From the sequence record OK272484.1: DNA of 64,000 nucleotides, one strand, 5' to 3'. Of the stretch, positions 1,192 through 55,343 are shown piece after piece. The DNA is from Escherichia phage JLBYU22. Each line of letters begins with the position of its first letter. Within the stretch, counting starts at the first letter, position 1. Under the pieces are notes generated by a model. The model was not told the DNA's origin, ran no database searches, and saw only the letters and a list, made by a program, of their open reading frames with translations. Made by a program: the position numbers and the translations under genes.

Positions 1192-1220
1192 GGGACCTTC
1201 GGGTCCCTTTAGTTGTTTTT
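1192..1220 (+). terminator. Rho-independent terminator after gene 23
   Basis: GGGACC-TTCG-GGTCCC hairpin 1192..1207 followed by T-rich tract. Confidence 0.75.
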
Positions 1221-1224
1221 ATGG

Positions 1225-1232
1225 TATAAATA
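1225..1232 (+). promoter_or_regulatory. T4 late promoter TATAAATA for gene 24
   Basis: Exact TATAAATA about 28 nt upstream of gene 24 ATG. Confidence 0.7.
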
Positions 1233-1259
1233 AATCATATAAACCAAAAGGAAAGCGCA

Positions 1260-2543
1260 ATGGCTAAAATCAACGAACTTCTGCGCGAATCAACCACAAC
1301 GAATAGCAACTCAATCGGTCGCCCAAATCTCGTTGCTTTGACTCGCGCTACCACTAAATTAATATATTCTGACATTGTAGCAACGCAAAGAACTAATCAA
1401 CCTGTTGCTGCTTTTTATGGTATCAAATACCTTAACCCTGATAACGAATTTACATTTAAAACTGGTGCTACTTACGCCGGCGAAGCTGGATACGTAGACC
1501 GAGAACAAATCACAGAATTAACAGAAGAGTCTAAATTAACTCTCAATAAAGGCGATTTATTCAAATATAATAATATCGTTTATAAAGTATTAGAAAATAC
1601 ACCATTTGCTGATATTGAAGAAAGTGATTTAGAATTAGCTCTTCAGATTGCAATTGTTCTTTTAAAGGTTCGTCTATTTTCTGATGCTGCAGTAACAAGC
1701 AAATTTGAAAGCTCTGATAGTGAAATTGCGGATGCTAGATTCCAGATTAATAAATGGCAAACCGCAGTTAAATCTCGTAAACTTAAAACTGGCATTACAG
1801 TTGAATTAGCACAAGATTTAGAAGCAAATGGATTCGATGCTCCTAATTTCTTGGAAGATTTGCTTGCAACCGAAATGGCAGATGAAATCAATAAAGATAT
1901 TCTGCAGTCTTTGATTACAGTATCAAAACGCTATAAAGTCACAGGAATTACTGATACTGGATTCATTGATTTGAGTTATGCATCTGCACCTGAAGCTGGT
2001 CGTTCATTATACCGAATGGTGTGTGAAATGGTTTCGCATATCCAAAAAGAATCAACTTATACTGCAACGTTCTGTGTTGCTTCAGCTCGTGCCGCTGCGA
2101 TTCTTGCTGCATCAGGTTGGTTAAAACATAAACCAGAAGATGACAAATATCTTTCACAAAATGCCTACGGGTTCTTAGCTAATGGTTTACCGCTTTATTG
2201 CGATACCAACAGCCCATTAGATTATGTAATCGTTGGCGTAGTAGAAAATATCGGTGAAAAAGAAATTGTTGGATCAATTTTCTATGCTCCATATACAGAA
2301 GGTCTTGACTTAGATGACCCTGAACATGTAGGTGCATTTAAAGTTGTAGTTGATCCAGAAAGTTTGCAGCCATCTATCGGTTTATTGGTTAGATATGCTT
2401 TATCTGCAAATCCTTATACTGTAGCAAAAGATGAAAAAGAAGCAAGAATAATTGATGGTGGAGACATGGATAAAATGGCGGGTCGTTCAGATTTGTCTGT
2501 TTTATTAGGTGTTAAGCTACCAAAAATTATCGTTGATGAATAA
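1260..2543 (+). CDS. 24: Head vertex protein gp24
   Basis: 427 aa, same length as T4 gp24; position after gene 23. Confidence 0.92.
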   Translation: MAKINELLRESTTTNSNSIGRPNLVALTRATTKLIYSDIVATQRTNQPVAAFYGIKYLNPDNEFTFKTGATYAGEAGYVDREQITELTEESKLTLNKGDLFKYNNIVYKVLENTPFADIEESDLELALQIAIVLLKVRLFSDAAVTSKFESSDSEIADARFQINKWQTAVKSRKLKTGITVELAQDLEANGFDAPNFLEDLLATEMADEINKDILQSLITVSKRYKVTGITDTGFIDLSYASAPEAGRSLYRMVCEMVSHIQKESTYTATFCVASARAAAILAASGWLKHKPEDDKYLSQNAYGFLANGLPLYCDTNSPLDYVIVGVVENIGEKEIVGSIFYAPYTEGLDLDDPEHVGAFKVVVDPESLQPSIGLLVRYALSANPYTVAKDEKEARIIDGGDMDKMAGRSDLSVLLGVKLPKIIVDE

Positions 2544-2549
2544 AACAAA

Positions 2550-2565
2550 GGGACCGAAAGGTCCC
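2550..2565. terminator. Bidirectional hairpin terminator between convergent genes 24 and rnlB
   Basis: GGGACC-GAAA-GGTCCC hairpin flanked by A/T-rich tracts on both sides. Confidence 0.65.
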
Positions 2566-2571
2566 TTTTAT

Positions 2572-3576
2572 TTAACTTACCAATTCAATCCAAGCCGGAC
2601 GAAGTACATCTTGTACCATTTTAACTAATTCCTTCTTAATCAAGGAAGGATTATCCGCTTGAGTTAAAGTAATACCTTCACGAGAAGTTTCTTCCAAAAT
2701 ATCTTGAACAGTTAGTCCCATCACCTTTCCAAAATCTTTTGGACCAATTTCGCCAATTTTAGAAATAACGTTATTTACCCGATTCAGTGTAACGTAGCAA
2801 GCTAAAATTCCCAGCAATTTGTTATCAGCTTCTGACAGTTCAACTTTAACTTTAATAGGCTTATCAGACTTTTTCTTTTCGCTAAATTTAGAGTTCTTGC
2901 ATTTGATAGCTACGCGATTACCATTAGGCATCCAAGAAGGATAACAAGGTTTCAATACATATCCTTCAGCAGTAAATACTTCGCCTTTTGCTTCAGCATT
3001 CCAAACGCATTTATTTGCATCAACTAATCCAGCGTGGTCTACCGTAAAATTATAATCCTGGACGACAGAATCTAAATCATTTGGCAATTTAATAAGTTCT
3101 TCAAATTTACCACGACCCAAAAGTGGAGCCATTTTAAATTTGAATGTATTACAGAATGATTCCATCATATAATCATCGACATAAGTCACATCACCACTTT
3201 CTGTAGTAACAATAATGTCAAATACATAAAAATCTTTATCACCATAATCGACATTCTTCTGAATGCCAGGTCCAGCGAATTCGCCGAAGACTTGATAAGA
3301 TACAACTGCCGAAGTTTCCATAATATCTTGTACTGCTTTAATGGAATCAGCGTAATTCTTTAGAATAATTTCATACCCAAAGAAATCTTCAGCAGGAAGA
3401 ATCGGTCCAGTACGTTTAGCACAAGTTGCTTTATCGCGTTCAATAATCAGTGAGAAATTTGTGCCATGAATCTTTTCACGAGCTACCCATTCGCCGCCAG
3501 TCAATCCTAAACTGTAAAGTTTTTCAATGAATTTAGAATTGTAATGATTTTCAAGACTGCTATACTTTTTAAACAT
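2572..3576 (-). CDS. rnlB: RNA ligase 2
   Basis: 334 aa; nucleotidyltransferase lysine motif KIHGTN near N-terminus; T4 position. Confidence 0.9.
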
Positions 3577-3585
3577 AATTAATCC

Positions 3586-3864
3586 TCAAAATGTAATTTC
3601 TAACCAATCACCATCACGTTGATCACTATTGACTTTAAAGCTAAATCCTTCTTTTCTCAGCCAATCACCAATTTCTTCAGTAATCAATTTATCGCGAGCA
3701 GTACAATAATAACTAAAATATGTTTTACCTTGTTCAGCTGCTTTATTAGCAAGTTCCGAAAAATCTTTAATAAAACACTCTAGCTTAAACTGTTTACTTT
3801 TAAGTGCTTTTTCGCGTAATTGATTAGCAAAAGATTCATTTTCATAAAGATCATACTGTTCCAT
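3586..3864 (-). CDS. Hypothetical protein (position of T4 24.2)
   Basis: 92-aa ORF in coupled minus-strand block. Confidence 0.55.
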   Translation of the reverse strand: MEQYDLYENESFANQLREKALKSKQFKLECFIKDFSELANKAAEQGKTYFSYYCTARDKLITEEIGDWLRKEGFSFKVNSDQRDGDWLEITF

Positions 3865-4066
3865 TTTTCACCTTTTTATTAATATGTCTTTTTCTATAGA
3901 CAACTTTTTCTCGAGTTTCAAATTTATTCTTAGCAGTCATAGCTCGAGCCCATAATACAGCCACTTCTTTTGCCTGTAAGTTCAATTCACGAGCAATTTC
4001 AATGAATGACTTTCCAGACTCATGAAGAGTAAACACCACAACTTCAGTTCTCATAATCAATCTCAT
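3851..4066 (-). CDS. Hypothetical protein (position of T4 24.3)
   Basis: 71-aa ORF, basic, overlaps downstream ORF start. Confidence 0.5.
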   Translation of the reverse strand: MRLIMRTEVVVFTLHESGKSFIEIARELNLQAKEVAVLWARAMTAKNKFETREKVVYRKRHINKKVKNGTV

Positions 4067-4135
4067 GTTATCGAGTTGGTGCCATTATATACATCATTTT
4101 CTGAGTGTGTTTTGTGTGCTTTCAAAATGAAGAAA

Positions 4136-4149
4136 GGGGCCGAAGCCCC
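4136..4149 (-). terminator. Hairpin terminator downstream of hoc
   Basis: GGGGC-CGAA-GCCCC hairpin; T-rich on minus strand after stem. Confidence 0.6.
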
Positions 4150-4155
4150 TTATGA

Positions 4156-5574
4156 TTATGGATAGGTATAGATTATACCAGTTTCTAAAGCAGTTTTGTG
4201 AATGATGTATCCATTACGTGATTCTTGGACATCAACTTCTGGATAGTCTTTCATCATCTTCTGAAGAGTGTAACGATGCAGGTAGTATTTACTATCTGGA
4301 TCTTCAGTTTTCCAATCTTTACCTTCTTCGGTCATTTTTTGGATTTCATCCATAACCCACCAACCACACCAGATGTAAGCTGAAGTACGATGTGGAAGAG
4401 GATGAACATAAGGTAATTCACCTTCTGGCTCTGGAGCAACTTTATCAGTTACCTGAACTTGACCTTCCGCCGTAATAGTTTTGCTATCATAATCAGCAGC
4501 AGTAACAGTTGCAGTAACTTCAATAGTTTGACTTCCAATAGATGAGGTATCAACGGTATATACATTAGTTGACCCTTCTACAGGAGAAGAATCTTTCTTC
4601 CATGAATACGCAATTTGCGCTTCTTCTGGAGCATCAGTGACATTAGCAGTAAATGTAGCCGAAGCATCTTGTTGAACGTTAATAGAAGGAGGAGTCAATG
4701 TAACCTGTGGATTCATTGTCTTCTTATTAACTGTTAATGATACTTCATTCGAAGTAACTTCCTTTTCATTGTAATTTTCAGCAGTTACTTGGGCTACGCA
4801 TTTAATTCTTTTTACTCCACTTGTAGTTGGAGTATAGTTAAATGTAGAGTTAGTTTCTCCACCAACTTGTGAATCATCTACATACCATTTATATGTAGCA
4901 GACGCTCCAACAGGTTGAGAAACCAAGGCAGCAGTAAATTGAACTGGGGTTCCAATTACTCCAGCTGAAGGACTATCAGGAGTTACTGCTAAGGTAGTTG
5001 TCTGCGTCTTTTTATTAACAGTCAGTGACACTTCATTGGAAGTAACTTCCTTTGTATCATAATCTGTCGCGGTTACTTGAGCTACACACTTAATTGTTTT
5101 AACTCCGCTTGTGTCAGGAGTGTAATTGAATGTAGCGTCAGTTGCTTCGTCTACAGGAGAACCGTCAACGTGCCATTGATACGTAGCGTTTGCACCTGAT
5201 GGCTGTGAAGCTAAGGCAGCGGTAAATTCAACAGCTGTTCCAATCACTCCAGCAGCAGGACTATCAGGAGTTACTGCCAAGGTAGTTGTCTGTGTCTTAT
5301 TTTGAACTGTGATAGTTGTACTAATTTCAGCTGTTTCAGCTTCAGAATCAGGAACTGGATTTGTTGCAACTACCTTAATAGTCTTTTGTCCAGCAGGACC
5401 TTTTAGTACATAACTAAAAGTTGCAGACGTTTCTTCCTGCGGTGCATCATCAACAGTCCAAGCATAGGTAATAGGTCCATCTCCAGTTTGACCACTGGGT
5501 GTAGCAGTAAACTGCTGAGTCTGATCTATAACTCCAGTAGGTGTTTTAGGAGTTATATCAACTGTAAAAGTCAT
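4156..5574 (-). CDS. hoc: Highly immunogenic outer capsid protein Hoc, 472 aa with four Ig-like domains plus capsid-binding C-terminus
   Basis: N- and C-terminal sequence as recalled for T4 Hoc; internal tandem Ig-like repeats; T4 Hoc is 376 aa. Confidence 0.88.
   Translation of the reverse strand: MTFTVDITPKTPTGVIDQTQQFTATPSGQTGDGPITYAWTVDDAPQEETSATFSYVLKGPAGQKTIKVVATNPVPDSEAETAEISTTITVQNKTQTTTLAVTPDSPAAGVIGTAVEFTAALASQPSGANATYQWHVDGSPVDEATDATFNYTPDTSGVKTIKCVAQVTATDYDTKEVTSNEVSLTVNKKTQTTTLAVTPDSPSAGVIGTPVQFTAALVSQPVGASATYKWYVDDSQVGGETNSTFNYTPTTSGVKRIKCVAQVTAENYNEKEVTSNEVSLTVNKKTMNPQVTLTPPSINVQQDASATFTANVTDAPEEAQIAYSWKKDSSPVEGSTNVYTVDTSSIGSQTIEVTATVTAADYDSKTITAEGQVQVTDKVAPEPEGELPYVHPLPHRTSAYIWCGWWVMDEIQKMTEEGKDWKTEDPDSKYYLHRYTLQKMMKDYPEVDVQESRNGYIIHKTALETGIIYTYP
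4723..5298 (-). repeat. Tandem duplication of a 288-bp Ig-like domain unit inside hoc (2 copies)
   Basis: Two consecutive 96-aa segments beginning KTQTTTLAVTPDSP and ending EVTSNEVSLTVNK, highly similar at protein level. Confidence 0.8.
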
Positions 5575-5583
5575 AAGTTATCC

Positions 5584-6264
5584 TTATTTTAATGTTACGA
5601 AAGAAGAATTGCGTGTTTCACGAATTAAAACTGATCCGTCACGGTTAATGTAATAAATTAAGCTAAATAAAGTTTGGTGTGCTGACGCATGCTCAAAACT
5701 AGTTGGGTGAGATTTCCAATCCGGAGTTTCAGCAATCCACTGGTAAATCCACCAAGGAACGGTGCAGAATCCTGGATTTTTTCCAATCAGCTGAAGATTC
5801 GGACTAAAGTTTTCCGGAAGAGTAAATACAGACAGCTTTTCAGATTCAATAATCTCAGCTACAGCCTGCTCGAATTTTTCTTCAACAAAAGGAGTATCTT
5901 CAATCAAAACATCGGTATTTTCAGGAATTTTATCCGTTTCTACTACTTCAATTTTAATGTCAGATTTAACCGGAGAATCAATCAGAAGTGCTGCCTCTGG
6001 ATTGACTTCTTCATCGTCATATTTTAACCCCTCTGCAGCATCAGCAGCATCAATTAAGTCTTTAATAGATAACCCATCAGTCTCTGGCATAGGTTCACTA
6101 GCGAGCTTCTGGAGGGCTTCTTCAATATCAACAACGATATTATCAAAAGATTTATTCTTTTTGACCTTTATACCAAACTGCTCAGCATATTCAGCTAATT
6201 TAGCTTTAGCTTCTTTGTTATCATCAAGAGCCTTCAGCTCTGCAATATAATCTTTATCTATCAT
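5584..6264 (-). CDS. inh: Inhibitor of prohead protease gp21
   Basis: 226 aa, same as T4 Inh; position between hoc and uvsW. Confidence 0.8.
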   Translation of the reverse strand: MIDKDYIAELKALDDNKEAKAKLAEYAEQFGIKVKKNKSFDNIVVDIEEALQKLASEPMPETDGLSIKDLIDAADAAEGLKYDDEEVNPEAALLIDSPVKSDIKIEVVETDKIPENTDVLIEDTPFVEEKFEQAVAEIIESEKLSVFTLPENFSPNLQLIGKNPGFCTVPWWIYQWIAETPDWKSHPTSFEHASAHQTLFSLIYYINRDGSVLIRETRNSSFVTLK

Positions 6265-44304: not shown

Positions 44305-44312
44305 TATAAATA
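44305..44312 (+). promoter_or_regulatory. T4 late promoter TATAAATA for gene 34
   Basis: Exact TATAAATA 35 nt upstream of gene 34 ATG. Confidence 0.65.
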
Positions 44313-44346: not shown

Positions 44347-47300
44347 ATGGCCGAGATTAAAAGAAAGTTCAGAGCAGAAGATGGTCTGGACGCAGGTGGT
44401 GATAAAATAATCAACGTAGCTTTAGCTGATCGTGCCGTAGGAACTGACGGTGTTAACGTTGATTACCTAATTCAAGAAAACACAGTTCAACAATACGATC
44501 CAACTCGTGGATATTTAAAAGATTTTGTAATCATTTATGATAACCGCTTTTGGGCTGCTATAAATGATATTCCAAAACCGGCAGGATCTTTTAATAGCGG
44601 ACGCTGGAGAGCATTACGTACCGATGCTAACTGGATTACGGTTTCATCTGGTTCATATCAATTAAAATCTGGCGAAGCAATTTCGGTTAATACTGCAGCT
44701 GGAAATGACATCACATTTACTTTACCATCTACTCCAATTGATGGTGATACTATCGTTCTCCAAGATATTGGAGGAAAACCCGGAGTTAACCAAGTTTTAA
44801 TTGTAGCTCCAGTGCAAAGTATTGTAAACTTTAGAGGTGAACAAGTACGTTCAGTACTAATGACTCATCCAAAGTCACAGCTAGTTTTAATTTTTAGTAA
44901 TCGTCTGTGGCAAATGTATGTAGCTGATTATAGTAGAGAAGCTGTAGTTGTAACACCAGCAAGTCTCTATCAGGCGCAATCTAATGATTTTATCGTACGT
45001 AGATTTACTTCTGCTGCACCAATTAATGTTAAACTTCCAAGATTTGCTAATCATGGAGATATTATTAATTTCGTTGATTTAGATAAACTAAATCCGCTTT
45101 ATCATACAATTGTTACAACATATGATGAAACCACTTCAGTACAAGAAGTTGGAACTCATTCTATTGAAGGCCGTACATCTATTGACGGTTTCTTGATGTA
45201 TGACGATAATGAGAAATTATGGAGATTATTTGACGGGGACAGTAAAGCACGTTTACGTATCATAACAACTAATTCAAACATTCGTCCAAATGAAGAAGTT
45301 ATGGTATTTGGTGCGAATAATGGAACAACTCAAACAATTGAGCTTCAGCTTCCAACTAATATTTCTGTTGGTGATACTGTTAAAATTTCCATGAATTACA
45401 TGAGAAAAGGACAAACAGTTAAAATCAAAGCTGCCGGTGAAGATAAAATTGCTTCTTCAGTTCAATTGCTGCAATTCCCAAAACGTTCAGAGTATCCACC
45501 TGAAGCTGAATGGGTGACTGTTCAAGAATTAGTTTTTAACGGTGAAACTAATTATGTTCCAGTTTTGCAACTTGCTTACATAGAAGATTCTGATGGAAAA
45601 TATTGGGTTGTGCAACAAAATGTTCCAACCGTAGAAAGAGTCGATTCTTTAAACGATTCTACTAGAGCAAGATTAGGCGTGATTGCTTTAGCTACACAAG
45701 CTCAAGCTAATGTCGATTTAGAAAATTCTCCACAAAAAGAATTAGCAATTACTCCAGAAACATTAGCTAACCGTACTGCTACAGAAACTCGCAGAGGTAT
45801 CGCAAGAATAGCAACAACTGCTCAAGTGAATCAGAACACCACATTCTCTTTTGCTGATGATATTATCATCACTCCTAAAAAGCTGAATGAAAGAACTGCT
45901 ACAGAAACTCGCAGAGGTGTTGCTGAAATTGCTACGCAACAGGAAACTAATGCAGGTACTGATGATACTACAATCATCACTCCTAAAAAGCTTCAAGCTC
46001 GTCAGGGTTCTGAATCATTATCTGGTATTGTAACCTTTGTATCTACCGCAGGAGCTACTCCAGCTTCTAGTCGTGAATTAAATGGTACAAATGTTTACAA
46101 TAAAAACACTAATAATTTAGTTGTTTCGCCTAAAGCTTTGGATCAGTATAAAGCTACTCCAACGCAACAAGGTGCAGTAATTTTAGCAGTTGAAAGTGAA
46201 GTAATTGCTGGACAGAGCCAAGAAGGATGGGCAAATGCGGTTGTAACGCCAGAAACGTTACATAAAAAGACATCAACTGATGGAAGAATTGGTTTAATTG
46301 AAATTGCTACACAAAGTGAAGTTAATACAGGAACTGATTATACTCGTGCAGTCACTCCTAAAACTTTAAATGACCGTAAAGCAACTGAAAGTTTAAGTGG
46401 TATAGCTGAAATTGCTACACAAGTTGAATTCGACGCAGGCGTCGACGATACTCGTATCTCTACACCATTAAAAATTAAAACTAGATTTAATAGTACTGAT
46501 CGTACTTCTGTTGTTGCTCTATCTGGATTAGTTGAATCAGGAACTCTCTGGGACCATTATACCCTTAATATTCTTGAAGCAAATGAGACACAGCGTGGTA
46601 CACTTCGTGTGGCTACACAAGTTGAAGCTGCTGCAGGAACATTAGATAATGTTTTAATAACTCCTAAAAAGCTTTTAGGTACTAAATCTACCGAATCGCA
46701 GGAAGGTGTTATTAAAGTTGCAACTCAGTCTGAAACTGTGACTGGAACGTCAGCAAATACTGCTGTATCTCCAAAAAATTTAAAATGGATTGTGCAGAGT
46801 GAACCTACTTGGGCAGCTACTACTGCGATAAGAGGCTTTGTTAAAACTTCATCTGGTTCAATTACATTCGTTGGTAATGATACAGTTGGTTCAACACAGT
46901 CGTTAGAATTATACGAGAAAAATAGCTATGCGGTATCACCATATGAATTAAACCGTGTATTAGCAAATTATTTGCCGTTAAAAGCAAAAGCTGTAGATAG
47001 TAATTTATTGGATGGTCTAGATTCATCTCAGTTCATTCGTAGGGACATTGCGCAGACAGTTAATGGTTCACTAACCTTAACCCAACAAACGAATCTGAGT
47101 GCCCCTCTTGTATCATCTAGTACTGCTGCGTTTGGTGGTTCAGTTTCGGCAAATAGTACATTAACTATTTCTAATACTGGAACGGCAACTCGTCTGATTT
47201 TTGAGAAAGGACCTCAAACTGGAACTAACCCAGCGCAGACGATGACTATCAGAGTTTGGGGAAATCAGTTTGGTGGTGGATCAGATACAACACGTTCTAC

Positions 47301-48216
47301 TGTATTTGAAGTTGGTGATGAAACATCTAATCACTTTTATTCTCAACGTAATAAAGCTGGTAATATTACGTTTAGCATTAATGGTACTGTAATGCCAATA
47401 AATGTTAACGCTTCCGGTTCATTGAATGCGAATGGCGTAGCAACATTTGGTAGTTCAGTTACAGCCAATGGTGAATTTATCAGCAAGTCTGCAAATGCTT
47501 TCAGAGCAATAAATGGCGATTATGGATTCTTTATTCGCAATGATGCTGCTAACACATATTTTATGCTTACTGCATCGGGTGATCAGACTGGCGGATTTAA
47601 TGGATTACGTCCTTTAGCTATTAATAATGCATCTGGTCAAGTAACTATTGGTGAAAGCTTAATCATTGCCAAAGGTGCTACTATAAATTCAGGTGGTTTA
47701 ACTGTTAACTCGAGAATTCGTTCTCAGGGCACTAAAACCTCTGACTTATATACCCGTGCGCCAACATCTGATACCGTAGGATTCTGGTCAATTGATATTA
47801 ATGATTCAGCTACTTATAACCAGTTCCCAGGTTATTTTAAAATGGTTGAAAAAACTAATGAAGTGACTGGGCTTCCGTACCTAGAACGTGGCGAAGAAGT
47901 TAAATCTCCTGGTACATTGACTCAGTTTGGTAACACACTTGATTCGCTTTACCAAGATTGGATTACTTATCCAACGACTCCAGAAGCACGTACCACTCGC
48001 TGGACACGTACATGGCAGAAAACCAAAAACTCTTGGTCAAGTTTTGTTCAGGTATTTGATGGAGGTAACCCTCCTCAACCATCTGATATCGGTGCTTTAC
48101 CATCTGATAATGCTACAATGGGGAATCTTACTATTCGTGATTTCTTACGAATTGGTAATGTTCGCATTATTCCTGACCCAGTGAATAAAACTGTTAAATT
48201 TGAATGGGTTGAATAA
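44347..48216 (+). CDS. 34: Long tail fibre proximal subunit gp34
   Basis: 1289 aa, same as T4 gp34. Confidence 0.95.
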   Translation: MAEIKRKFRAEDGLDAGGDKIINVALADRAVGTDGVNVDYLIQENTVQQYDPTRGYLKDFVIIYDNRFWAAINDIPKPAGSFNSGRWRALRTDANWITVSSGSYQLKSGEAISVNTAAGNDITFTLPSTPIDGDTIVLQDIGGKPGVNQVLIVAPVQSIVNFRGEQVRSVLMTHPKSQLVLIFSNRLWQMYVADYSREAVVVTPASLYQAQSNDFIVRRFTSAAPINVKLPRFANHGDIINFVDLDKLNPLYHTIVTTYDETTSVQEVGTHSIEGRTSIDGFLMYDDNEKLWRLFDGDSKARLRIITTNSNIRPNEEVMVFGANNGTTQTIELQLPTNISVGDTVKISMNYMRKGQTVKIKAAGEDKIASSVQLLQFPKRSEYPPEAEWVTVQELVFNGETNYVPVLQLAYIEDSDGKYWVVQQNVPTVERVDSLNDSTRARLGVIALATQAQANVDLENSPQKELAITPETLANRTATETRRGIARIATTAQVNQNTTFSFADDIIITPKKLNERTATETRRGVAEIATQQETNAGTDDTTIITPKKLQARQGSESLSGIVTFVSTAGATPASSRELNGTNVYNKNTNNLVVSPKALDQYKATPTQQGAVILAVESEVIAGQSQEGWANAVVTPETLHKKTSTDGRIGLIEIATQSEVNTGTDYTRAVTPKTLNDRKATESLSGIAEIATQVEFDAGVDDTRISTPLKIKTRFNSTDRTSVVALSGLVESGTLWDHYTLNILEANETQRGTLRVATQVEAAAGTLDNVLITPKKLLGTKSTESQEGVIKVATQSETVTGTSANTAVSPKNLKWIVQSEPTWAATTAIRGFVKTSSGSITFVGNDTVGSTQSLELYEKNSYAVSPYELNRVLANYLPLKAKAVDSNLLDGLDSSQFIRRDIAQTVNGSLTLTQQTNLSAPLVSSSTAAFGGSVSANSTLTISNTGTATRLIFEKGPQTGTNPAQTMTIRVWGNQFGGGSDTTRSTVFEVGDETSNHFYSQRNKAGNITFSINGTVMPINVNASGSLNANGVATFGSSVTANGEFISKSANAFRAINGDYGFFIRNDAANTYFMLTASGDQTGGFNGLRPLAINNASGQVTIGESLIIAKGATINSGGLTVNSRIRSQGTKTSDLYTRAPTSDTVGFWSIDINDSATYNQFPGYFKMVEKTNEVTGLPYLERGEEVKSPGTLTQFGNTLDSLYQDWITYPTTPEARTTRWTRTWQKTKNSWSSFVQVFDGGNPPQPSDIGALPSDNATMGNLTIRDFLRIGNVRIIPDPVNKTVKFEWVE

Positions 48217-48224
48217 GAGGTATT

Positions 48225-49340
48225 ATGGAAAAATTTATGGCAGAGTTTGGACAAGGATATGTCCAAACGCCATTTTTATCGGAAAGCAATTCAGTAAGAT
48301 ATAAAATAAGCATAGCGGGTTCTTGCCCGCTTTCTACAGCAGGACCATACGTTAAATTTCAGGATAATCCTGTAGGAAGTCAAACATTTAGCGCAGGCCT
48401 TCATTTAAGAGTTTTTGACCCTTCCACCGGAGCATTAGTTGATAGTAAATCATATGCTTTTTCGACTTCAAATGATACTACATCAGCTGCCTTTGTTAGT
48501 TTCATGAATTCTTTGACGAATAACAGACTTGTTGCTATATTAACTAGCGGAAAGGTTAATTTTCCTCCTGAAGTAGTATCTTGGTTAAGAACCGCAGGAA
48601 CGTCTGCTTTTCCATCTGATTCTTTATTGTCAAGATTTGACGTATCATATGCTGCCTTTTATACTTCTTCTAAAAGAGCTATTGCATTAGAACATGTTAA
48701 ACTAAGTAATAGAAAAAGCACAGATGATTATCAAACTATTTTAGATGTTGTATTTGACAGTTTAGAGGACGTTGGAGCCACAGGATTTCCAAAAAGAACG
48801 TACGAAAGCGTTGAGCAATTTATGTCAGCGGTTGGTGGAACTAATAACGAAATTGCACGTCTACCGACTTCGGCTGCTATAAGTAAACTTTCTGATTATA
48901 ATTTAATTCCTGGCGATGTTCTTTATCTTAAAGCTCAGTTATATGCTGATGCCGATTTACTCGCGCTTGGAACTACAAATATATCTATCCGTTTTTATAA
49001 TGCATCGAATGGATATATTTCTTCAACACAAGCTGAGTTTACCGGGCAAGCTGGGTCTTGGGAATTAAAAGAAGATTATGTAGTTGTTCCAGAAAATGCA
49101 GTAGGATTTACGATATATGCACAGAGAACTGCGCAAGCTGGTCAAGGTGGCATGAGAAATTTAAGCTTTTCTGAAGTGTCAAGAAATGGAGGTATTTCGA
49201 AACCTGCTGAATTTGGCGTCAATGGCATTCGTGTTAATTATATCTGTGAATCTGCTTCACCTCCGGATATAATGGTACTTCCTACGCAAGCATCGTCTAA
49301 AACTGGTAAAGTGTTTGGGCAAGAATTTAGAGAAGTTTAA
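48225..49340 (+). CDS. 35: Long tail fibre hinge connector gp35
   Basis: 371 aa; position between 34 and 36. Confidence 0.88.
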   Translation: MEKFMAEFGQGYVQTPFLSESNSVRYKISIAGSCPLSTAGPYVKFQDNPVGSQTFSAGLHLRVFDPSTGALVDSKSYAFSTSNDTTSAAFVSFMNSLTNNRLVAILTSGKVNFPPEVVSWLRTAGTSAFPSDSLLSRFDVSYAAFYTSSKRAIALEHVKLSNRKSTDDYQTILDVVFDSLEDVGATGFPKRTYESVEQFMSAVGGTNNEIARLPTSAAISKLSDYNLIPGDVLYLKAQLYADADLLALGTTNISIRFYNASNGYISSTQAEFTGQAGSWELKEDYVVVPENAVGFTIYAQRTAQAGQGGMRNLSFSEVSRNGGISKPAEFGVNGIRVNYICESASPPDIMVLPTQASSKTGKVFGQEFREV

Positions 49341-49345
49341 ATTGA

Positions 49346-49363
49346 GGGAGCCTTCGGGTTCCC
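49346..49363 (+). terminator. Hairpin terminator after gene 35
   Basis: GGGAGCC-TTCG-GGTTCCC followed by TTTTTCTTT. Confidence 0.6.
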
Positions 49364-49371
49364 TTTTTCTT

Positions 49372-49379
49372 TATAAATA
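49372..49379 (+). promoter_or_regulatory. T4 late promoter TATAAATA for gene 36
   Basis: Exact TATAAATA 24 nt upstream of gene 36 ATG. Confidence 0.7.
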
Positions 49380-49402: not shown

Positions 49403-50068
49403 ATGGCTGATTTAAAAGTAGGTTCAACAACCGGAGGCTCTGTCATTTGGCATCAAGGAAATTTTCCATTGAATCCAGCCGGTGACGATGTACTCTATAA
49501 ATCATTTAAAATATATTCAGAATACAATAAACCACAAGCTGTTGATAACGATTTCGTTTCTAAAGCTAATGGTGGTACTTATGCATCAAAGGTAACATTT
49601 AATGCTGGTGTTCAAGTACCATATGCTGTAAACAATACAAACCCGTGCGGTATTTATCCAGGTAACGGTGATAATGCTACTTTTGCTGTAGCAAATATCG
49701 ATATTGTTTCGTGGAATGGTATTGGTTTTAAATCATCACAGGGTTCAGCAGCCCGAACTGTTGTAATTAATGCACGTAATGGTGATATTAGCACAAAAGG
49801 TGTTGTATCAGCTGCGGGTCAAGTAAGAAGTGATGCAGCTGCTCCTATAGCAGCGAATGACCTTACTAGAAAGGACTATGTTGACGGAGCAATAAATACT
49901 GTTACGGCAAATGCGAACTCTAGAGTGTTACGATCTGGTGATACTATGACTGGAAACTTAACCGCACCAAACTTTTTCTCACAGAATCCTGCATCTCAAC
50001 CTTCACATGTTCCACGATTTGACCAAATCGTAATTAAGGATTCTGTTCAAGATTTCGGCTATTATTAA
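49403..50068 (+). CDS. 36: Long tail fibre distal connector gp36
   Basis: 221 aa, same as T4 gp36. Confidence 0.9.
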   Translation: MADLKVGSTTGGSVIWHQGNFPLNPAGDDVLYKSFKIYSEYNKPQAVDNDFVSKANGGTYASKVTFNAGVQVPYAVNNTNPCGIYPGNGDNATFAVANIDIVSWNGIGFKSSQGSAARTVVINARNGDISTKGVVSAAGQVRSDAAAPIAANDLTRKDYVDGAINTVTANANSRVLRSGDTMTGNLTAPNFFSQNPASQPSHVPRFDQIVIKDSVQDFGYY

Positions 50069-50076
50069 GAGGACTT

Positions 50077-53000
50077 ATGGCTACTTTAAAACAAATACAA
50101 TTTAAAAGAAGCAAAACCGCAGGTGCACGTCCTGCTGCTTCAGTATTAGCCGAAGGTGAATTGGCTATAAACTTAAAAGATAGAACAATTTTTACTAAAG
50201 ATGATTCAGGAAATATCATTGACTTAAGCATTTCCGCTGGCGGTAATATCAGTGGAAATATCACTCAAACTGGTGATTATACACAGACTGGAAAATTTAA
50301 TTTAATTGGCCCGCAGATTATAGCAAGTGGTGGATATATTGAGTTTAATTATCGTACTACTGGAAGTGGGGCTTGGTCCGGTCAACACACTGCAAAAGCT
50401 CCAATTTTTGTAGATTTAAGCTCAGCTACTTCCACATCTGAATATAATCCTATAATTAAACAGCGCTTTAAAGATGGAACTTTTTCATTAGGTACTTTAG
50501 TTTCTGAAGGTTCGTTAAAGATTCATTATATTGATGAAACTGGTCAATCTAAATATTGGACATTTGCGCGCTCAGGTAATTTTCAAGTTGATTCTGGTAA
50601 TTTATTAGTATCTGGTGGGTATTTAGTCGCTCAGAGTAATATTGAAACAAGAACAGGTTCTTTGATTGGTCCATCTGTTGTAACTAAAAATATTTCATTT
50701 GATACGAAAGCGTTTGGACAATACGATTCGCAGTCATTAGTTCAATATGTTTATCCTGGAACTGGTGAAACAAACGGAATTAATTACCTTCGTAAATTCC
50801 GTGCAAAATCCGGTGGTACGATTTATCATGAATTAGCTTCTGCACAAACCGGAAAAAGTGATGAACTGTCTTGGTGGACCGGTAATACAGCCGTTAATAA
50901 ACAAATGGGCCTTCGCAATGATGGGTCTTTAGTATTGCGACGCTCACTCGCAATTGGTACAATTACAACAGATGAAAACATTAATAATTACGGCTCCACT
51001 GGAGCAATGGGTGAATGCTATATAGTCATTGGAGATGCCGCAACTGGTATATCATATAAAAGATCTGGTGTATATGATTTAGTTGCTAATGGTCTTTCTA
51101 TCGCGTCTATTACTCCTGACAGTTTCCGTAGTACTCGTAAAGCATTATTTGGACGCTCAGAAGATCAAGGTACAACATGGATTATGCCTGGAACGAATGC
51201 TGCATTTTTATCAGTTCAAACACAGGCTGATGAAAACAGTGCTGGAGACGGTCAGACACATATTGGCTATAATTCAGGCGGAAAAATGAACCACTATTTC
51301 CGCGGTAAAGGCAAAACTAATATTAATACTCAAGAAGGCATGGAAGTTAACCCGGGTATTCTTAAAATAGTAACCGGTGCAAATAATGTAATGTTTTATG
51401 CTGATGGCGGTATTACATCCACTAAGCAGCTTTCAATATATAATGGTGTATATTTAGCAGCTAATAATTCTACTGCTGGGCTAACATTCGCTCCAACTAC
51501 TACAATTGATGGCACTAAGCAAATTTTGTGGGAAGGTGGTAAGCGCGCTGGACAGAATAAAAGCTATGTAACTGTTAAAGCGTGGGGTAATTCATTTAAC
51601 GCATCTGGCGATCGTAATCGTGAAACAGTTTTTGAAGTAGCTGACGGACAAGGTTATTATTTTTATTCCCAGCGTGTAGCCCCAAGCGGCTCAGAAACTA
51701 CTGGTCCTGTTGTAACTCAGTTTGCTGGAGCTGTTAATGCTAGAGGAAGTATTATTACTGACGGAAGTTTTAAAGTTAATGGATTGAGCACTTTAGTCGG
51801 TAATGTTACCATGTCTAATGGTTTGTTTGTCCAAGGTGGTTCTTCTATTACTGGACAAGTTAAAATCGGCGGAACTGCAGATGCATTAAGAATTTGGAAT
51901 GCTGAATATGGTGCAATTTTCCGTCGTTCTGAAGATAAGCTTTATATTATTCCAACCCCGCAGAATGCTGGTGAATCAGGTGGTATTTCTAATTTACGTC
52001 CGTTCTATATTACATTAAGTACTGGTAAAGTTTCCATGGATCATGATGTAGATATCGGCGGCGGTAGATTTAAAGTAGAAGTGGCTGGAACTACGGCTGG
52101 TCAACGTATTATAGTTAATGCAGCGAGCGATGCTATTAGAATAAATGCTCCAACACAAGAGTCTTCTAACTTCATTCAAGGACGTAAGGCTGATGTGAAT
52201 AAATGGTATTTGGGTATTGGCGATGGCGGCAACGTCGTTCGTATGCACAGCTACACATATTCACATGGTATTGCATTAAATTCTGATTCTGTCGATATTA
52301 CTAAGCCTCTTAAAGTCGGAAACGCCCAACTAGGAACTGACGGTAATATTACCAATGGTTCAGGAAACTTTGCCAACTTAAATACCACGTTAAATCGTAA
52401 AGTTAATTCTGGATTTATTACTTATGGAGCAACCTCTGGATGGTATAAGTTTGCAACAGTAACAATGCCACAATCCACTTCGACAGTCTTCTTTAAAATA
52501 GTTGGAGGTTCTGGATTTAATAGCGGATTATTCACACAATGTAATATTGCTGAAATTGTTTTACGTACTAGTAATGAAAGACCTGCTGACTTAAATGCTG
52601 CATTATACACAAGAACAATTGGAGCTGCATTTAAAGATATTGCAGTTAATAACGTCTCTGGAGATACATATGACATTTATGTTTCTGCTGGAACATATTG
52701 TAATCAATTGGCTTGTGAGTGGTCATGTACCGAAAATGCTACTGTTAGTGTTATTGGTATTAACTCATCTACACAATCGCCTGTAGATGCTCTTCCAGAC
52801 ACAGCAGTTAACGGTCAAGTTGCTAATGTTCTTAATAACTTGGTTGATCGCGGTAAAGTTAAGCGTTATGAAGCCGATTCTGAAATAGCTATTAATAGCC
52901 AAACCGGTATTCGTATCAGAAGCAACAGCGATAAAACTGGTTCTGTTGCTACAATGCTACGAAATGATGGCGGTAGTTTTTATATTCTGTTTACAGATAA

Positions 53001-53838
53001 AAATGCCACCGATGGCGCAGCAACTGTTAATGGCGATTGGAATAGTAAACGTCCTTTCGCAATTAACTTAACAACCGGCAAAGTGATGATGAATAATGGC
53101 ATAGCTGTTCGCAGCGCTGCTTTATTCTATAATAGCATAAACGTCAAAGATAATGGTTCTATTAACTTTGATAAATCAGGCGCTAACCCGAGAAATATGA
53201 GAATATTTCATGCTGGCGATGCTTCTCGCGGTAACCGTATTGAAATTGCCGATGAAACTAACTATATTGCTTACTTTGAAAAAACACCAGGTGGAGCTAA
53301 TCGCTTTGTAGTAAATAATGCTACTGTAGCTGGTGTTAATCAAATGAATTCATTTGGTATTAACATCAATAACGCACTTGGTGGAAATAGTATAGCGTTT
53401 GGCGATAATGACACTGGTATTAAGCAAAATGGCGATGGATTATTAGACATATATGCGAATGGTGTACAGACTTTCCGTTTCCAAAACGGTGATTTGTACT
53501 CATACAAAAATATAAATGCTCCAAACGTTTATACTCGTTCTGATATTCGTTTAAAATCTAACTTCAAACCTATCGAAAATGCACTTGATAAAGTTGAAAA
53601 ACTTAACGGTGTCATTTACGATAAAGCTGAATATATCGGTGGAGAGGCAATTGAAACTGAAGCGGGTATTGTAGCTCAAACGTTACAAGACGTTTTACCA
53701 GAAGCCGTCCGTGAAACAGAAGACAGCAAGGGTAATAAAATACTCACTGTTTCTTCTCAAGCCCAGATTGCTCTTCTGGTTGAAGCTGTGAAAACGCTTT
53801 CTTCTCGTGTAAAAGAACTTGAATCTAAACTTATGTAA
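50077..53838 (+). CDS. 37: Long tail fibre distal subunit gp37 (T2/T6-type, 1253 aa)
   Basis: N-terminus conserved with T4 gp37; longer than T4 (1026 aa); C-terminal segment resembles an intramolecular chaperone-like domain. Confidence 0.9.
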   Translation: MATLKQIQFKRSKTAGARPAASVLAEGELAINLKDRTIFTKDDSGNIIDLSISAGGNISGNITQTGDYTQTGKFNLIGPQIIASGGYIEFNYRTTGSGAWSGQHTAKAPIFVDLSSATSTSEYNPIIKQRFKDGTFSLGTLVSEGSLKIHYIDETGQSKYWTFARSGNFQVDSGNLLVSGGYLVAQSNIETRTGSLIGPSVVTKNISFDTKAFGQYDSQSLVQYVYPGTGETNGINYLRKFRAKSGGTIYHELASAQTGKSDELSWWTGNTAVNKQMGLRNDGSLVLRRSLAIGTITTDENINNYGSTGAMGECYIVIGDAATGISYKRSGVYDLVANGLSIASITPDSFRSTRKALFGRSEDQGTTWIMPGTNAAFLSVQTQADENSAGDGQTHIGYNSGGKMNHYFRGKGKTNINTQEGMEVNPGILKIVTGANNVMFYADGGITSTKQLSIYNGVYLAANNSTAGLTFAPTTTIDGTKQILWEGGKRAGQNKSYVTVKAWGNSFNASGDRNRETVFEVADGQGYYFYSQRVAPSGSETTGPVVTQFAGAVNARGSIITDGSFKVNGLSTLVGNVTMSNGLFVQGGSSITGQVKIGGTADALRIWNAEYGAIFRRSEDKLYIIPTPQNAGESGGISNLRPFYITLSTGKVSMDHDVDIGGGRFKVEVAGTTAGQRIIVNAASDAIRINAPTQESSNFIQGRKADVNKWYLGIGDGGNVVRMHSYTYSHGIALNSDSVDITKPLKVGNAQLGTDGNITNGSGNFANLNTTLNRKVNSGFITYGATSGWYKFATVTMPQSTSTVFFKIVGGSGFNSGLFTQCNIAEIVLRTSNERPADLNAALYTRTIGAAFKDIAVNNVSGDTYDIYVSAGTYCNQLACEWSCTENATVSVIGINSSTQSPVDALPDTAVNGQVANVLNNLVDRGKVKRYEADSEIAINSQTGIRIRSNSDKTGSVATMLRNDGGSFYILFTDKNATDGAATVNGDWNSKRPFAINLTTGKVMMNNGIAVRSAALFYNSINVKDNGSINFDKSGANPRNMRIFHAGDASRGNRIEIADETNYIAYFEKTPGGANRFVVNNATVAGVNQMNSFGININNALGGNSIAFGDNDTGIKQNGDGLLDIYANGVQTFRFQNGDLYSYKNINAPNVYTRSDIRLKSNFKPIENALDKVEKLNGVIYDKAEYIGGEAIETEAGIVAQTLQDVLPEAVRETEDSKGNKILTVSSQAQIALLVEAVKTLSSRVKELESKLM

Positions 53839-53840
53839 AA

Positions 53841-53856
53841 GAGGGCTTCGGCCCTC
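53841..53856 (+). terminator. Hairpin (attenuator/terminator) between genes 37 and 38
   Basis: GAGGGC-TTCG-GCCCTC stem-loop followed by moderately T-rich sequence. Confidence 0.45.
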
Positions 53857-53868
53857 TAAGGATTTTTA

Positions 53869-54654
53869 ATGGCAATTGTAGGTGTTCCTGGCTGGATTGG
53901 TGAATCTGCCGTGAATGAAACTGGACAGCGTTGGATGGATGCTGCGATGAGAGCAGTTCGTGTTTCAGTTCCTGGTTGGATGAGCTCAATGGCTGGGCAA
54001 TCTAAAGAAGTATATTATAGCATTGGTGCTAGCAATTCTTACAATAAAGACACACTAATAAATTGGATAAAAGCCCAAGGAAGCACTCCTGTTGTTATTA
54101 CTATTACAGGAAATATTGTTTCTCAATCTACTGGTGTTCCATGCTTAGATTTTCCTAGCTCATTAACTAATGCATACGTGACACTTAATATCAATTCAGG
54201 CGTGCATGTTTGGGGCCGTGGCGGGAATGGCGGAAATAACTCTGCTGGCGGAGCAGGAGGAACTGCAATAAATAACGGAATTGGAACTAGATTACGTATT
54301 AACAACAATGGTGTTATCGCAGGCGGCGGTGGCGGCGGTGGCGGCGGATACTACTCTCCTTTTTCACAAATGAAATTGACTTTTGGCGGAGGAGGCGGTC
54401 GTCCATTTGGTGCTGCCGGTGGGTCTGCTAATATGGAACAGGGTGCTACTGCTGGTACTATTTCTGCGCCAGGTAAAGGGTCTGTCAACGGTATCTATAA
54501 TGGCGGGAATGGTGGTGATGCCGGAGCCGCAGGAGGTAAATGTAATATTCGCGGTCAAGGATCAGAATATAACGGTGGTGCTGCGGGTAAAGCTGTTACT
54601 GGTAATGCTCCAACTTGGACTAAAGTTGGCACAATATATGGTTCAAGAGTATAA
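53869..54654 (+). CDS. 38: Tail fibre tip adhesin gp38 (T2-type, glycine-rich motifs flanking variable segments)
   Basis: 261 aa; poly-Gly runs such as GGGGGGGGGYY and GGGGG; N-terminus MAIVGVPGWIG; C-terminus GSRV. Confidence 0.88.
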   Translation: MAIVGVPGWIGESAVNETGQRWMDAAMRAVRVSVPGWMSSMAGQSKEVYYSIGASNSYNKDTLINWIKAQGSTPVVITITGNIVSQSTGVPCLDFPSSLTNAYVTLNINSGVHVWGRGGNGGNNSAGGAGGTAINNGIGTRLRINNNGVIAGGGGGGGGGYYSPFSQMKLTFGGGGGRPFGAAGGSANMEQGATAGTISAPGKGSVNGIYNGGNGGDAGAAGGKCNIRGQGSEYNGGAAGKAVTGNAPTWTKVGTIYGSRV

Positions 54655-54686
54655 TTTTTGAATAAATATCCTTAAAAGGAGGGTCT

Positions 54687-55343
54687 ATGGCAGCACCTAG
54701 AATATCACTTTCGCCCTCTGATATTCTATTTGGTGTTCTAGATCGCTTGTTCAAAGATAACGCTACCGGGAAAGTTCTTGCTTCCCGGGTAGCTGTCGTA
54801 ATTCTTTTATTTATGATGGCGATTGTTTGGTATAGGGGAGATAGTTTCTTTGAGTACTATAAGCAATCAAAGTATGAAACATACAGTGAAATTATTGAAA
54901 AGGAAAGAAATGCACGCTTTGAATCTGTCGCCCTGGAACAACTCCAGATAGTTCATATATCATCTGAGGCAGACTTTAGTGCGGTGTATTCTTTCCGCCC
55001 TAAAAACTTAAACTATTTTGTTGATATTATAGCATACGAAGGAAGATTACCTTCGACAATAACAGAAAAATCACTTGGAGGATATCCTGTTGATAAAACT
55101 ATGGATGAATATACAGTTCATTTAAATGGACGTCATTATTATTCCGATTCAAAATTTGCTTTTTTACCAACTAAAAAGCCTACTCCCGAAATAAACTACA
55201 TGTACAGTTGTCCATATTTTAATTTGGATAATATCTATGCTGGAACGATAACCATGTACTGGTATAGAAATGATCATATAAGTAATGACCGCCTTGAATC
55301 AATATGTGCTCAGGCGGCCAGAATATTAGGAAGGGCTAAATAA
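54687..55343 (+). CDS. t: Holin T
   Basis: 218 aa, same as T4 holin; single N-proximal TM segment. Confidence 0.9.
   Translation: MAAPRISLSPSDILFGVLDRLFKDNATGKVLASRVAVVILLFMMAIVWYRGDSFFEYYKQSKYETYSEIIEKERNARFESVALEQLQIVHISSEADFSAVYSFRPKNLNYFVDIIAYEGRLPSTITEKSLGGYPVDKTMDEYTVHLNGRHYYSDSKFAFLPTKKPTPEINYMYSCPYFNLDNIYAGTITMYWYRNDHISNDRLESICAQAARILGRAK

Follow-up and report, generated by a model that had tools for sequence, protein, structure and literature searches.

A T2-type distal tail fibre in Escherichia phage JLBYU22, with a chimeric gp38 adhesin of probable Tsx specificity

Genes 37 and 38 of Escherichia phage JLBYU22 (positions 50077-54654 of the 64,000-nucleotide stretch of sequence record OK272484.1 analysed here, hereafter the window) raise the question of what kind of distal tail fibre they build: a T4-type fibre, whose gp38 aids gp37 folding without joining the virion, or a T2-type fibre, whose gp38 is itself the receptor-binding tip—and, if the latter, which receptor that tip recognises. 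We consider it very likely that the locus encodes the distal half of a T2-type long tail fibre, comprising a gp37 shaft with a self-removed chaperone, a gp38 tip, and Tsx as receptor. The original prediction of a 'T2/T6-type' fibre, made from the sequence alone, proved correct both in what it observed and in how it read it. It can be refined in that the gp37 tip, the 99-residue chaperone domain and the gp38 attachment domain are of T2/K3 rather than T6 type.

Architecture of the gp37-gp38 pair

The features of the two genes are listed below. Boundaries of the glycine-rich motifs (GRM) and hypervariable segments (HVS) are approximate and were set in this analysis.

50077-53838, plus strand: gene 37, open reading frame for the large distal tail-fibre subunit, a 1253-residue precursor of T2/K3 type (PHROG 1699, 'long tail fiber protein distal subunit', E=0)
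51598-52011, plus strand: gp37 residues 508-645, trimerisation module common to gp34 (Pfam Gp34_trimer, E=2e-9)
52027-52326, plus strand: gp37 residues 651-750, mosaic shaft segment
52132-52356, plus strand: gp37 residues 686-760, gp37_trimer or T7 gp17 pyramid-like shaft module (Pfam gp37_trimer, E=7.6e-12; 4A0T/4A0U, E=1.3e-6)
53341-53538, plus strand: gp37 residues 1089-1154, T2-type fibre tip, the predicted mature C-terminus and gp38 docking face
53539-53835, plus strand: gp37 residues 1155-1253, Peptidase_S74 intramolecular chaperone domain (Pfam PF13884)
53869-54654, plus strand: gene 38, tail-fibre tip adhesin of 261 residues (Pfam GP38, E=3.5e-72; Gp38_N, E=8.2e-18)
53869-54009, plus strand: gp38 residues 1-47, three-helix attachment domain of T2/K3 subtype with W9, W22 and W37
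54010-54213, plus strand: gp38 residues 48-115, beta-helix body, strands throughout in the model
54214-54651, plus strand: gp38 residues 116-261, glycine-rich specificity domain
gp38 residues 116-131: GRM1
gp38 residues 132-151: HVS1
gp38 residues 152-160: GRM2
gp38 residues 161-172 (54349-54384): HVS2
gp38 residues 173-185: GRM3
gp38 residues 186-211 (54424-54501): HVS3
gp38 residues 212-223: GRM4
gp38 residues 224-235 (54538-54573): HVS4
gp38 residues 236-261: GRM5 and conserved C-terminus

The sequence of JLBYU22 directly shows the gene order, the domain content, the fold, an identity to proteins already characterised and the lack of T4-type features. Both open reading frames have the predicted positions and sizes, and T4 gp37 has the 1026 residues with which the longer JLBYU22 protein had been compared. 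The poly-glycine motifs of gp38 are likewise as first described (nine glycines followed by YY at residues 152-162, GGGGG at 173-177, GGNGG at 212-216), and glycine makes up 32% of residues 120-261. The protein belongs to PHROG 2056 (E=2.3e-105) and matched PF05268 (GP38) with 243.2 bits and PF21721 (Gp38_N) with 64.6 bits, the cut-off being 25 in both cases; chance does not produce such scores. Its nearest structures were 6F45_D (E=2.7e-49), the gp38 adhesin of S16, to which it is ~50% identical, and the PP01 gp38 receptor-binding domain 9V85 (E=1e-33). A single-chain AlphaFold2 model built on 62 homologues had a predicted local distance difference test (pLDDT) score of 93.3 and a predicted template modelling (pTM) score of 0.87. 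In Foldseek searches this model matched 6F45_D (E=3.5e-22; TM 0.80/0.84) and 9V85_C (TM 0.86, normalised by target), and nothing else in the PDB reached E<1; as modelled, gp38 has the fold expected of such an adhesin, a beta-helix plus polyglycine-II sandwich.

The gp38 comparison set consisted of T2, T6, S16, RB18, WilhelmHis, PaulHMueller, EV240 and GEC-3S, in place of the K3 and Ox2 adhesins initially proposed; the K3 record covers gene 37 only. Invariant glycines fall at residues 116-131, 152-157, 173-177, 213-222 and 236-240, with variable segments between them. The expectation that all inter-glycine segments would vary was right for HVS2-4 and wrong for HVS1 (132-151), which is mostly conserved beta-helix. 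In the model, helices span residues 10-18, 23-29 and 38-41, and W9, W22 and W37 each stand just ahead of one. W9 and W22 were invariant, and W37 nearly so, in an alignment of nine gp38 sequences; in an alignment of 62 sequences, W9 and W22 were ≥90% conserved and position 37 was mostly Trp. Three Trp residues of S16 gp38 dock it onto gp37 (PMC6851490), and W9, W22 and W37 would by analogy do the same in JLBYU22.

The gp37 tail to which attention had been drawn (NAPNVYTRSDIRLKSNFKPI...KELESKLM) is present, and its suggested resemblance to an autoprocessed intramolecular chaperone was borne out: residues 1155-1212 match PF13884 over the full profile (positions 1-58 of 58; E=3.4e-15; 56.5 bits, cut-off 22), and the region can be aligned to the S16 gp37 cleavage site. 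The Ser and Lys of the S-D-x-R-x-K motif are the catalytic dyad of the S74 family. These residues, five apart, open the JLBYU22 domain as S1155-D-I-R-L-K1160, aligned with SDRRIKK of S16. In 10 of 10 T2-type relatives the motif is SDIRLK, exactly 99 residues from the C-terminus; in T6 it is SDSRLK, at a distance of 113 residues, and T4 gp37 has no motif of this type. The tail also gave a weak match (E=0.0012) to the MyRF auto-processing domain 7DC3. In S16, cleavage at DLNVS^SDRRIKK frees 113 residues and exposes the gp38 docking face (PMC7917993). Because NVYTR-SDIRLKS aligns with this site, the JLBYU22 autocleavage is predicted to fall between R1154 and S1155 (NVYTR^SDIRLKS), freeing a 99-residue chaperone. 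The tip preceding the predicted cut aligns to the S16 gp37 tip in 6F45_A, and the last 165 residues of gp37 are 92% identical to those of T2. Proteolytic processing of T2 and T6 gp37 before gp38 capping is established, according to the account of Drexler 1986 given in PMC3157838; by analogy with T2 and S16, the chaperone of JLBYU22 gp37 would be released autocatalytically after trimerisation.

Upstream of the tip, residues 1-657 of gp37 are collinear with gp37 of T4 (59% identity) and of T2 (74%), and pairwise comparison found no T4 gp37 similarity beyond about residue 657. Full-length gp37 had no match at E<0.01 to the T4 needle structure 2XGF, only a 19-residue collar match at E=0.058; the T4-type receptor-binding needle, with its C-terminal needle/head domain and His-box iron sites, was not found in gp37. 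Residues 443-699 align to the T4 gp34 structures 4UXE/5NXF (E ~2e-12).

We propose, on the model of S16 and T2, that gp37 is helped to fold into a trimeric beta-helical shaft by the Peptidase_S74 chaperone that makes up its last 99 residues. The chaperone would then cut itself off between R1154 and S1155 by means of the Ser1155/Lys1160 dyad in SDIRLK, exposing a flat trimeric tip that ends in ...NVYTR. One gp38 would dock on this tip via its N-terminal three-helix bundle, inserting W9, W22 and W37 into three equivalent pockets; both the exact bond cut and this 3:1 geometry are drawn from S16 and T2. The rest of gp38 would form a beta-helix with a polyglycine-II 'sandwich' of glycine-rich motifs, from which hypervariable loops project to bind a host outer-membrane protein, in the case of the JLBYU22 allele probably the nucleoside channel Tsx.

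Several known systems resemble this one. T2 and the K3/RB18-type phages have the same gene order (36-37-38-t), the same 99-residue SDIRLK chaperone domain and an identical hairpin between genes 37 and 38, whereas T2 gp37 has 1341 residues and another central shaft. The S16 gp37-gp38 tip complex (6F45) shares the fold, the three docking Trp, the polyglycine-II sandwich and a gp37 S74 domain with S-D-x-R-x-K, but S16 binds Salmonella OmpC, its chaperone domain has 113 residues, DLNVS precedes the cut, and its loops are different. The endosialidase and T5 pb1-type chaperone domains (MEROPS S74, PF13884) are alike in the full-length profile match, the Ser...Lys spacing and the position at the C-terminus of a trimeric fibre. 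In those proteins cleavage simply matures a tailspike, whereas the predicted cut in JLBYU22 gp37 would uncover the place where a separate adhesin docks.

Chimeric gp38 and its receptor

Fourteen phage records contain a gp38 protein 100% identical to that of JLBYU22; it is carried by FriedrichMiescher (Bas39), JK38, teqhal, teqsoen, slur02, slur04, slur11, slur13, JK1, QOTSP, BGP and EL. For Bas39, the primary receptor is Tsx and the terminal receptor the lipopolysaccharide deep core (BASEL S5 table, PMC8594841); JK38 was assigned Tsx/Kdo by randomly barcoded transposon sequencing (RB-TnSeq; bioRxiv 10.64898/2026.04.02.716166). Because gp38 is identical, and not merely similar, to that of these Tsx-mapped phages, the receptors originally listed (OmpA, OmpC, FadL and Tsx) narrow to Tsx. 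Tsx, a nucleoside channel, is thus almost certainly the primary receptor of JLBYU22 gp38, which would sit on the virion tip and bind it there.

On the sequence comparisons, gp38 is chimeric. Its attachment domain (residues 1-47) is 98-100% identical to those of T2, RB18 and PaulHMueller (T2 98%) versus 66% to that of T6, and its beta-helix (48-115) is 91-99% identical to those of RB18, PaulHMueller and GEC-3S versus 62% for T2 and 34% for T6. HVS2-4, on the other hand, are 77-92% identical to those of T6 and the BASEL phage WilhelmHis (Bas35), both of which use Tsx and have an identical GRM2, and 92-100% identical to those of the Krischvirus GEC-3S; the segments of T2, which uses FadL, are unrelated (0-23%), and those of the OmpA phages PaulHMueller and EV240 are distant (17-69%). 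T6 gp37 has 994 residues, another tip and a 113-residue SDSRLK chaperone domain. The combination of a chimeric gp38 with a T2-like gp37 C-terminus matches the published lock-and-key rule, by which N-terminal subtypes of gp38 travel with matching gp37 C-termini (Trojet 2011). Similarly, in a PP01/T2 chimera experiment the N-terminal 113 residues of gp38 set compatibility with T2 gp37 (PMC12892980).

A side observation concerns the gp38 proteins of RB18 and TadeuszReichstein (Bas43), each of which is 84.4% identical to that of JLBYU22. HVS2-4 of RB18 (L012) are just 25-50% identical to the JLBYU22 segments; Bas43 is nonetheless listed as Tsx-dependent. If RB18 and Bas43 gp38 are of the same type, at least two quite different loop sets would bind Tsx.

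Mosaic gp37 and the rival readings

No database sequence matches gp37 exactly, and sliding-window comparisons mark it as a new mosaic allele. Residues 1-650 resemble QOTSP, FriedrichMiescher and BGP; residues 751-1100 resemble QOTSP, FriedrichMiescher, NR1 and RB18; and residues 1101-1253 are exactly those of slur04 and teqsoen except for the substitution I1153T. Between them, residues 651-750 are 100% identical to QOTSP and 10-46% identical to the ten other relatives among the 11 compared, and the pyramid-like module (686-760) overlaps this segment. QOTSP is also the closest database match overall, at 96.2% amino acid identity. The identical gp38 is carried alongside gp37 proteins of 1253 to 1312 residues with differing shaft mosaics, and the Bas39/JK38/QOTSP group differs further from JLBYU22 in having Ile at the position equivalent to 1153. 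In the JK38 record (L003 1201-5692), gene 37 is annotated as two overlapping coding sequences, 1201-3921 and 3908-5692, and is ~730 nt longer than that of JLBYU22; the cause may be an assembly error, or else a frameshift combined with an internal duplication or insertion.

The I1153T codon (ACT, 53533-53535) arises by a single T-to-C transition and specifies the penultimate residue of the predicted mature gp37; it is the sole difference from slur04 and teqsoen in the last 170 residues. All ten aligned T2-type relatives have Ile at the equivalent position. A 50-residue peptide carrying Thr1153 had no exact match among 50,697 phage records, 71 of which match 49 of the 50 residues, with Ile in those inspected. 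The Thr variant was also absent from IMG/VR, a weak result given that only 3 contigs there contain the Ile control pattern.

Three other readings of the locus deserve consideration, of which the T4-type one is the least credible: that gp38 is an assembly chaperone aiding gp37 folding outside the virion, with gp37 itself bearing the receptor-binding tip. In several records the identical protein goes under the name 'distal long tail fiber assembly catalyst' or 'tail assembly protein', which would speak for this reading; these names are legacy annotations carried over from T4. The protein shows no similarity to T4 gp38 (183 residues; BLASTP E=19) and strongly matches the S16 and PP01 adhesins in sequence and fold, while gp37 has no T4 needle domain, its C-terminus being a removable chaperone domain instead. 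The alignments that could have spoken for T4-type proteins, of gp38 with the T4 chaperone and of the gp37 C-terminus with the T4 receptor-binding tip, thus failed to appear, as the original prediction of a T2-family adhesin would have it, and the T4-type readings of gp38 (compared with T4 gp38) and of gp37 (compared with T4 gp37 and 2XGF) were both rejected.

Within a T2-type fibre, it is improbable, though less so, that the primary receptor is not Tsx (e.g., OmpA, OmpF, OmpC or FadL) or that a second receptor is used besides it. Related gp38 proteins do use other porins—that of PaulHMueller, an OmpA phage, is 87% identical overall—and known cases show specificity broadened or switched by a few HVS substitutions; moreover, RB18-type loops are markedly different, so that another loop set serves Tsx too if TadeuszReichstein carries such loops. 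Against this, phages with exactly the same gp38 were mapped to Tsx in two independent studies, and HVS2-4 are far closer to those of T6 and WilhelmHis than to those of the OmpA phages or T2. That I1153T, just before the P1 arginine, impairs autocleavage or gp38 docking and leaves a fibre partly defective or unlike those of relatives seems highly improbable. The absence of Thr at this position from the phage records and IMG/VR contigs searched fits such an effect, as does the proposal that the strand ...VYIR is the docking face (PMC7917993). On the other hand, Thr, Ile and Val are all beta-branched and favour beta-strands, S16 has Val at the equivalent position, a single transition suffices for the change, and the catalytic Ser/Lys motif and the remainder of the last 170 residues are the same as in slur04 and teqsoen. 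A sequencing error or a neutral polymorphism would explain I1153T equally well.

Several points do weigh against a Tsx-binding T2-type fibre. The Tsx assignment for JLBYU22 rests on experiments in other phages, and it needs exact identity, which is true of gp38 only, because small HVS-loop changes can add or switch receptors (e.g., PST versus T6, or RB68 Q206L). For its part, gp37 differs from every database sequence, and I1153T lies on the predicted gp38 docking strand beside the cleavage site, where it may affect cleavage or docking. Finally, the gp38 model is a monomer built without gp37.

Gene 38 history and the surrounding locus

JLBYU22 belongs to Tequatrovirus: a 25-kb stretch of the window has ~97% DNA identity to many T-even phages, with no exact match among those compared. 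The neighbouring genes and expression signals are as follows.

44347-48216: gp34, upstream of genes 36, 37 and 38
48225-49340: gp35, the hinge protein, upstream of gene 36
49372-49379, plus strand: exact match to the T4-type late promoter consensus TATAAATA, 24 nt upstream of gene 36
49403-50068, plus strand: gene 36, small distal half-fibre subunit of 221 residues that joins gp37 to the hinge (Pfam Phage_T4_gp36, E=1.3e-43)
53840-53857, plus strand: intercistronic hairpin AGAGGGC-UUCG-GCCCUCU (7 bp), 2 nt after the gene 37 stop and abutting the gene 38 Shine-Dalgarno sequence
53858-53862, plus strand: gene 38 Shine-Dalgarno sequence AAGGA
54687-55343: t holin, downstream of gene 38 (Pfam Phage_holin_T, E=1.3e-116)

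The spacer between genes 37 and 38 is 30 nt, placing gene 38 between the predicted cleavable chaperone domain of gp37 and the t holin, beyond which asiA lies on the opposite strand. In Krischvirus, in contrast, the gp38 gene is far from gene 37 and flanked by small hypothetical genes. Separately, residues 58-127 of gp35 gave a Pfam ILEI match (interleukin-like EMT inducer/FAM3 fold; E=3.4e-8) above the gathering score.

By analogy with T4, the promoter at 49372-49379 is likely to be the start of a late transcript of genes 36, 37 and 38. A terminator-like hairpin after gene 35 (49344-49365) precedes it. The only exact matches to the consensus near the operon are this one and that at 44305, before gene 34; gene 38 has none before it. 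In the window as a whole, the count is not above chance (12 versus 8.9 expected), and scans for sigma-70 promoters and terminators gave mostly chance-level matches. In the spacer between gene 38 and t (54655-54686), AATAAATA at 54661-54668 is one mismatch from the consensus and is conserved in QOTSP, FriedrichMiescher, T2 and T6; from its sequence, a separate late promoter for the holin gene is possible.

The case for the hairpin between genes 37 and 38 lies in its conservation and not in its energy. Its minimum free energy is -13.4 kcal/mol, with a z-score of only -1.6, so the energy is not exceptional; its sequence, however, is the same across 10 T2-type relatives, and hairpins analogous to it but of other sequence occur in T6 and T4. 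In the K3 and NR1 records it is given as a potential terminator. One could speculate that it holds the expression of gene 38 below that of gene 37, an effect that would suit the 3:1 stoichiometry.

Compared with seven relatives that encode the identical protein, gene 38 of JLBYU22 has 41-44 differing sites, all of them synonymous (synonymous divergence, dS, ~0.25, with zero amino acid changes); one is a switch of serine codon family at nucleotides 213-215. The neighbouring genes 36, 37 and t have ratios of non-synonymous to synonymous divergence (dN/dS) of ~0.08-0.18. Artificial recoding, which would also give the same protein with ~5% DNA difference, was considered and rejected. The relatives differ from one another by up to 13 synonymous sites, and NR1 gene 38 is an intermediate DNA lineage 24 nt from JLBYU22, so that the pattern reflects natural purifying selection; only 8 sites are unique to JLBYU22.

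Residues 48-261 of gp38 are ~90-100% identical to the adhesin of GEC-3S, an RB49-like phage (54010-54651 versus L013 586-1362), but the attachment domain is only 64% identical. This pattern implies that the two genera have exchanged the adhesin body, the junction being the linker that follows the attachment domain. Going further, the Tsx gp38 may be a 'frozen' cassette, among the most constrained proteins of the phage within its receptor class, that moves between genera as a unit while the docking domain alone is swapped to suit each gp37 tip; I1153T would then possibly be a compensating change or a neutral by-product. We regard this idea as tentative and rate its chances as somewhat short of even.

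How such a fibre is built and processed, how gp38 folds and even which receptor this very gp38 protein binds have all been published before; what JLBYU22 adds is limited to its own gp37 mosaic and a private substitution next to the predicted cut. The significance of the locus as a discovery is small, and its practical value is in annotation. If, as the sequence predicts, Tsx is needed as primary receptor, tsx-null hosts, including E. coli B REL606, should resist JLBYU22. For tail-fibre engineering, the gene 37/gene 38 pair offers a clean example of lock-and-key modularity, in which a T2-type tip and a T2-type docking domain are combined with T6-type loops.

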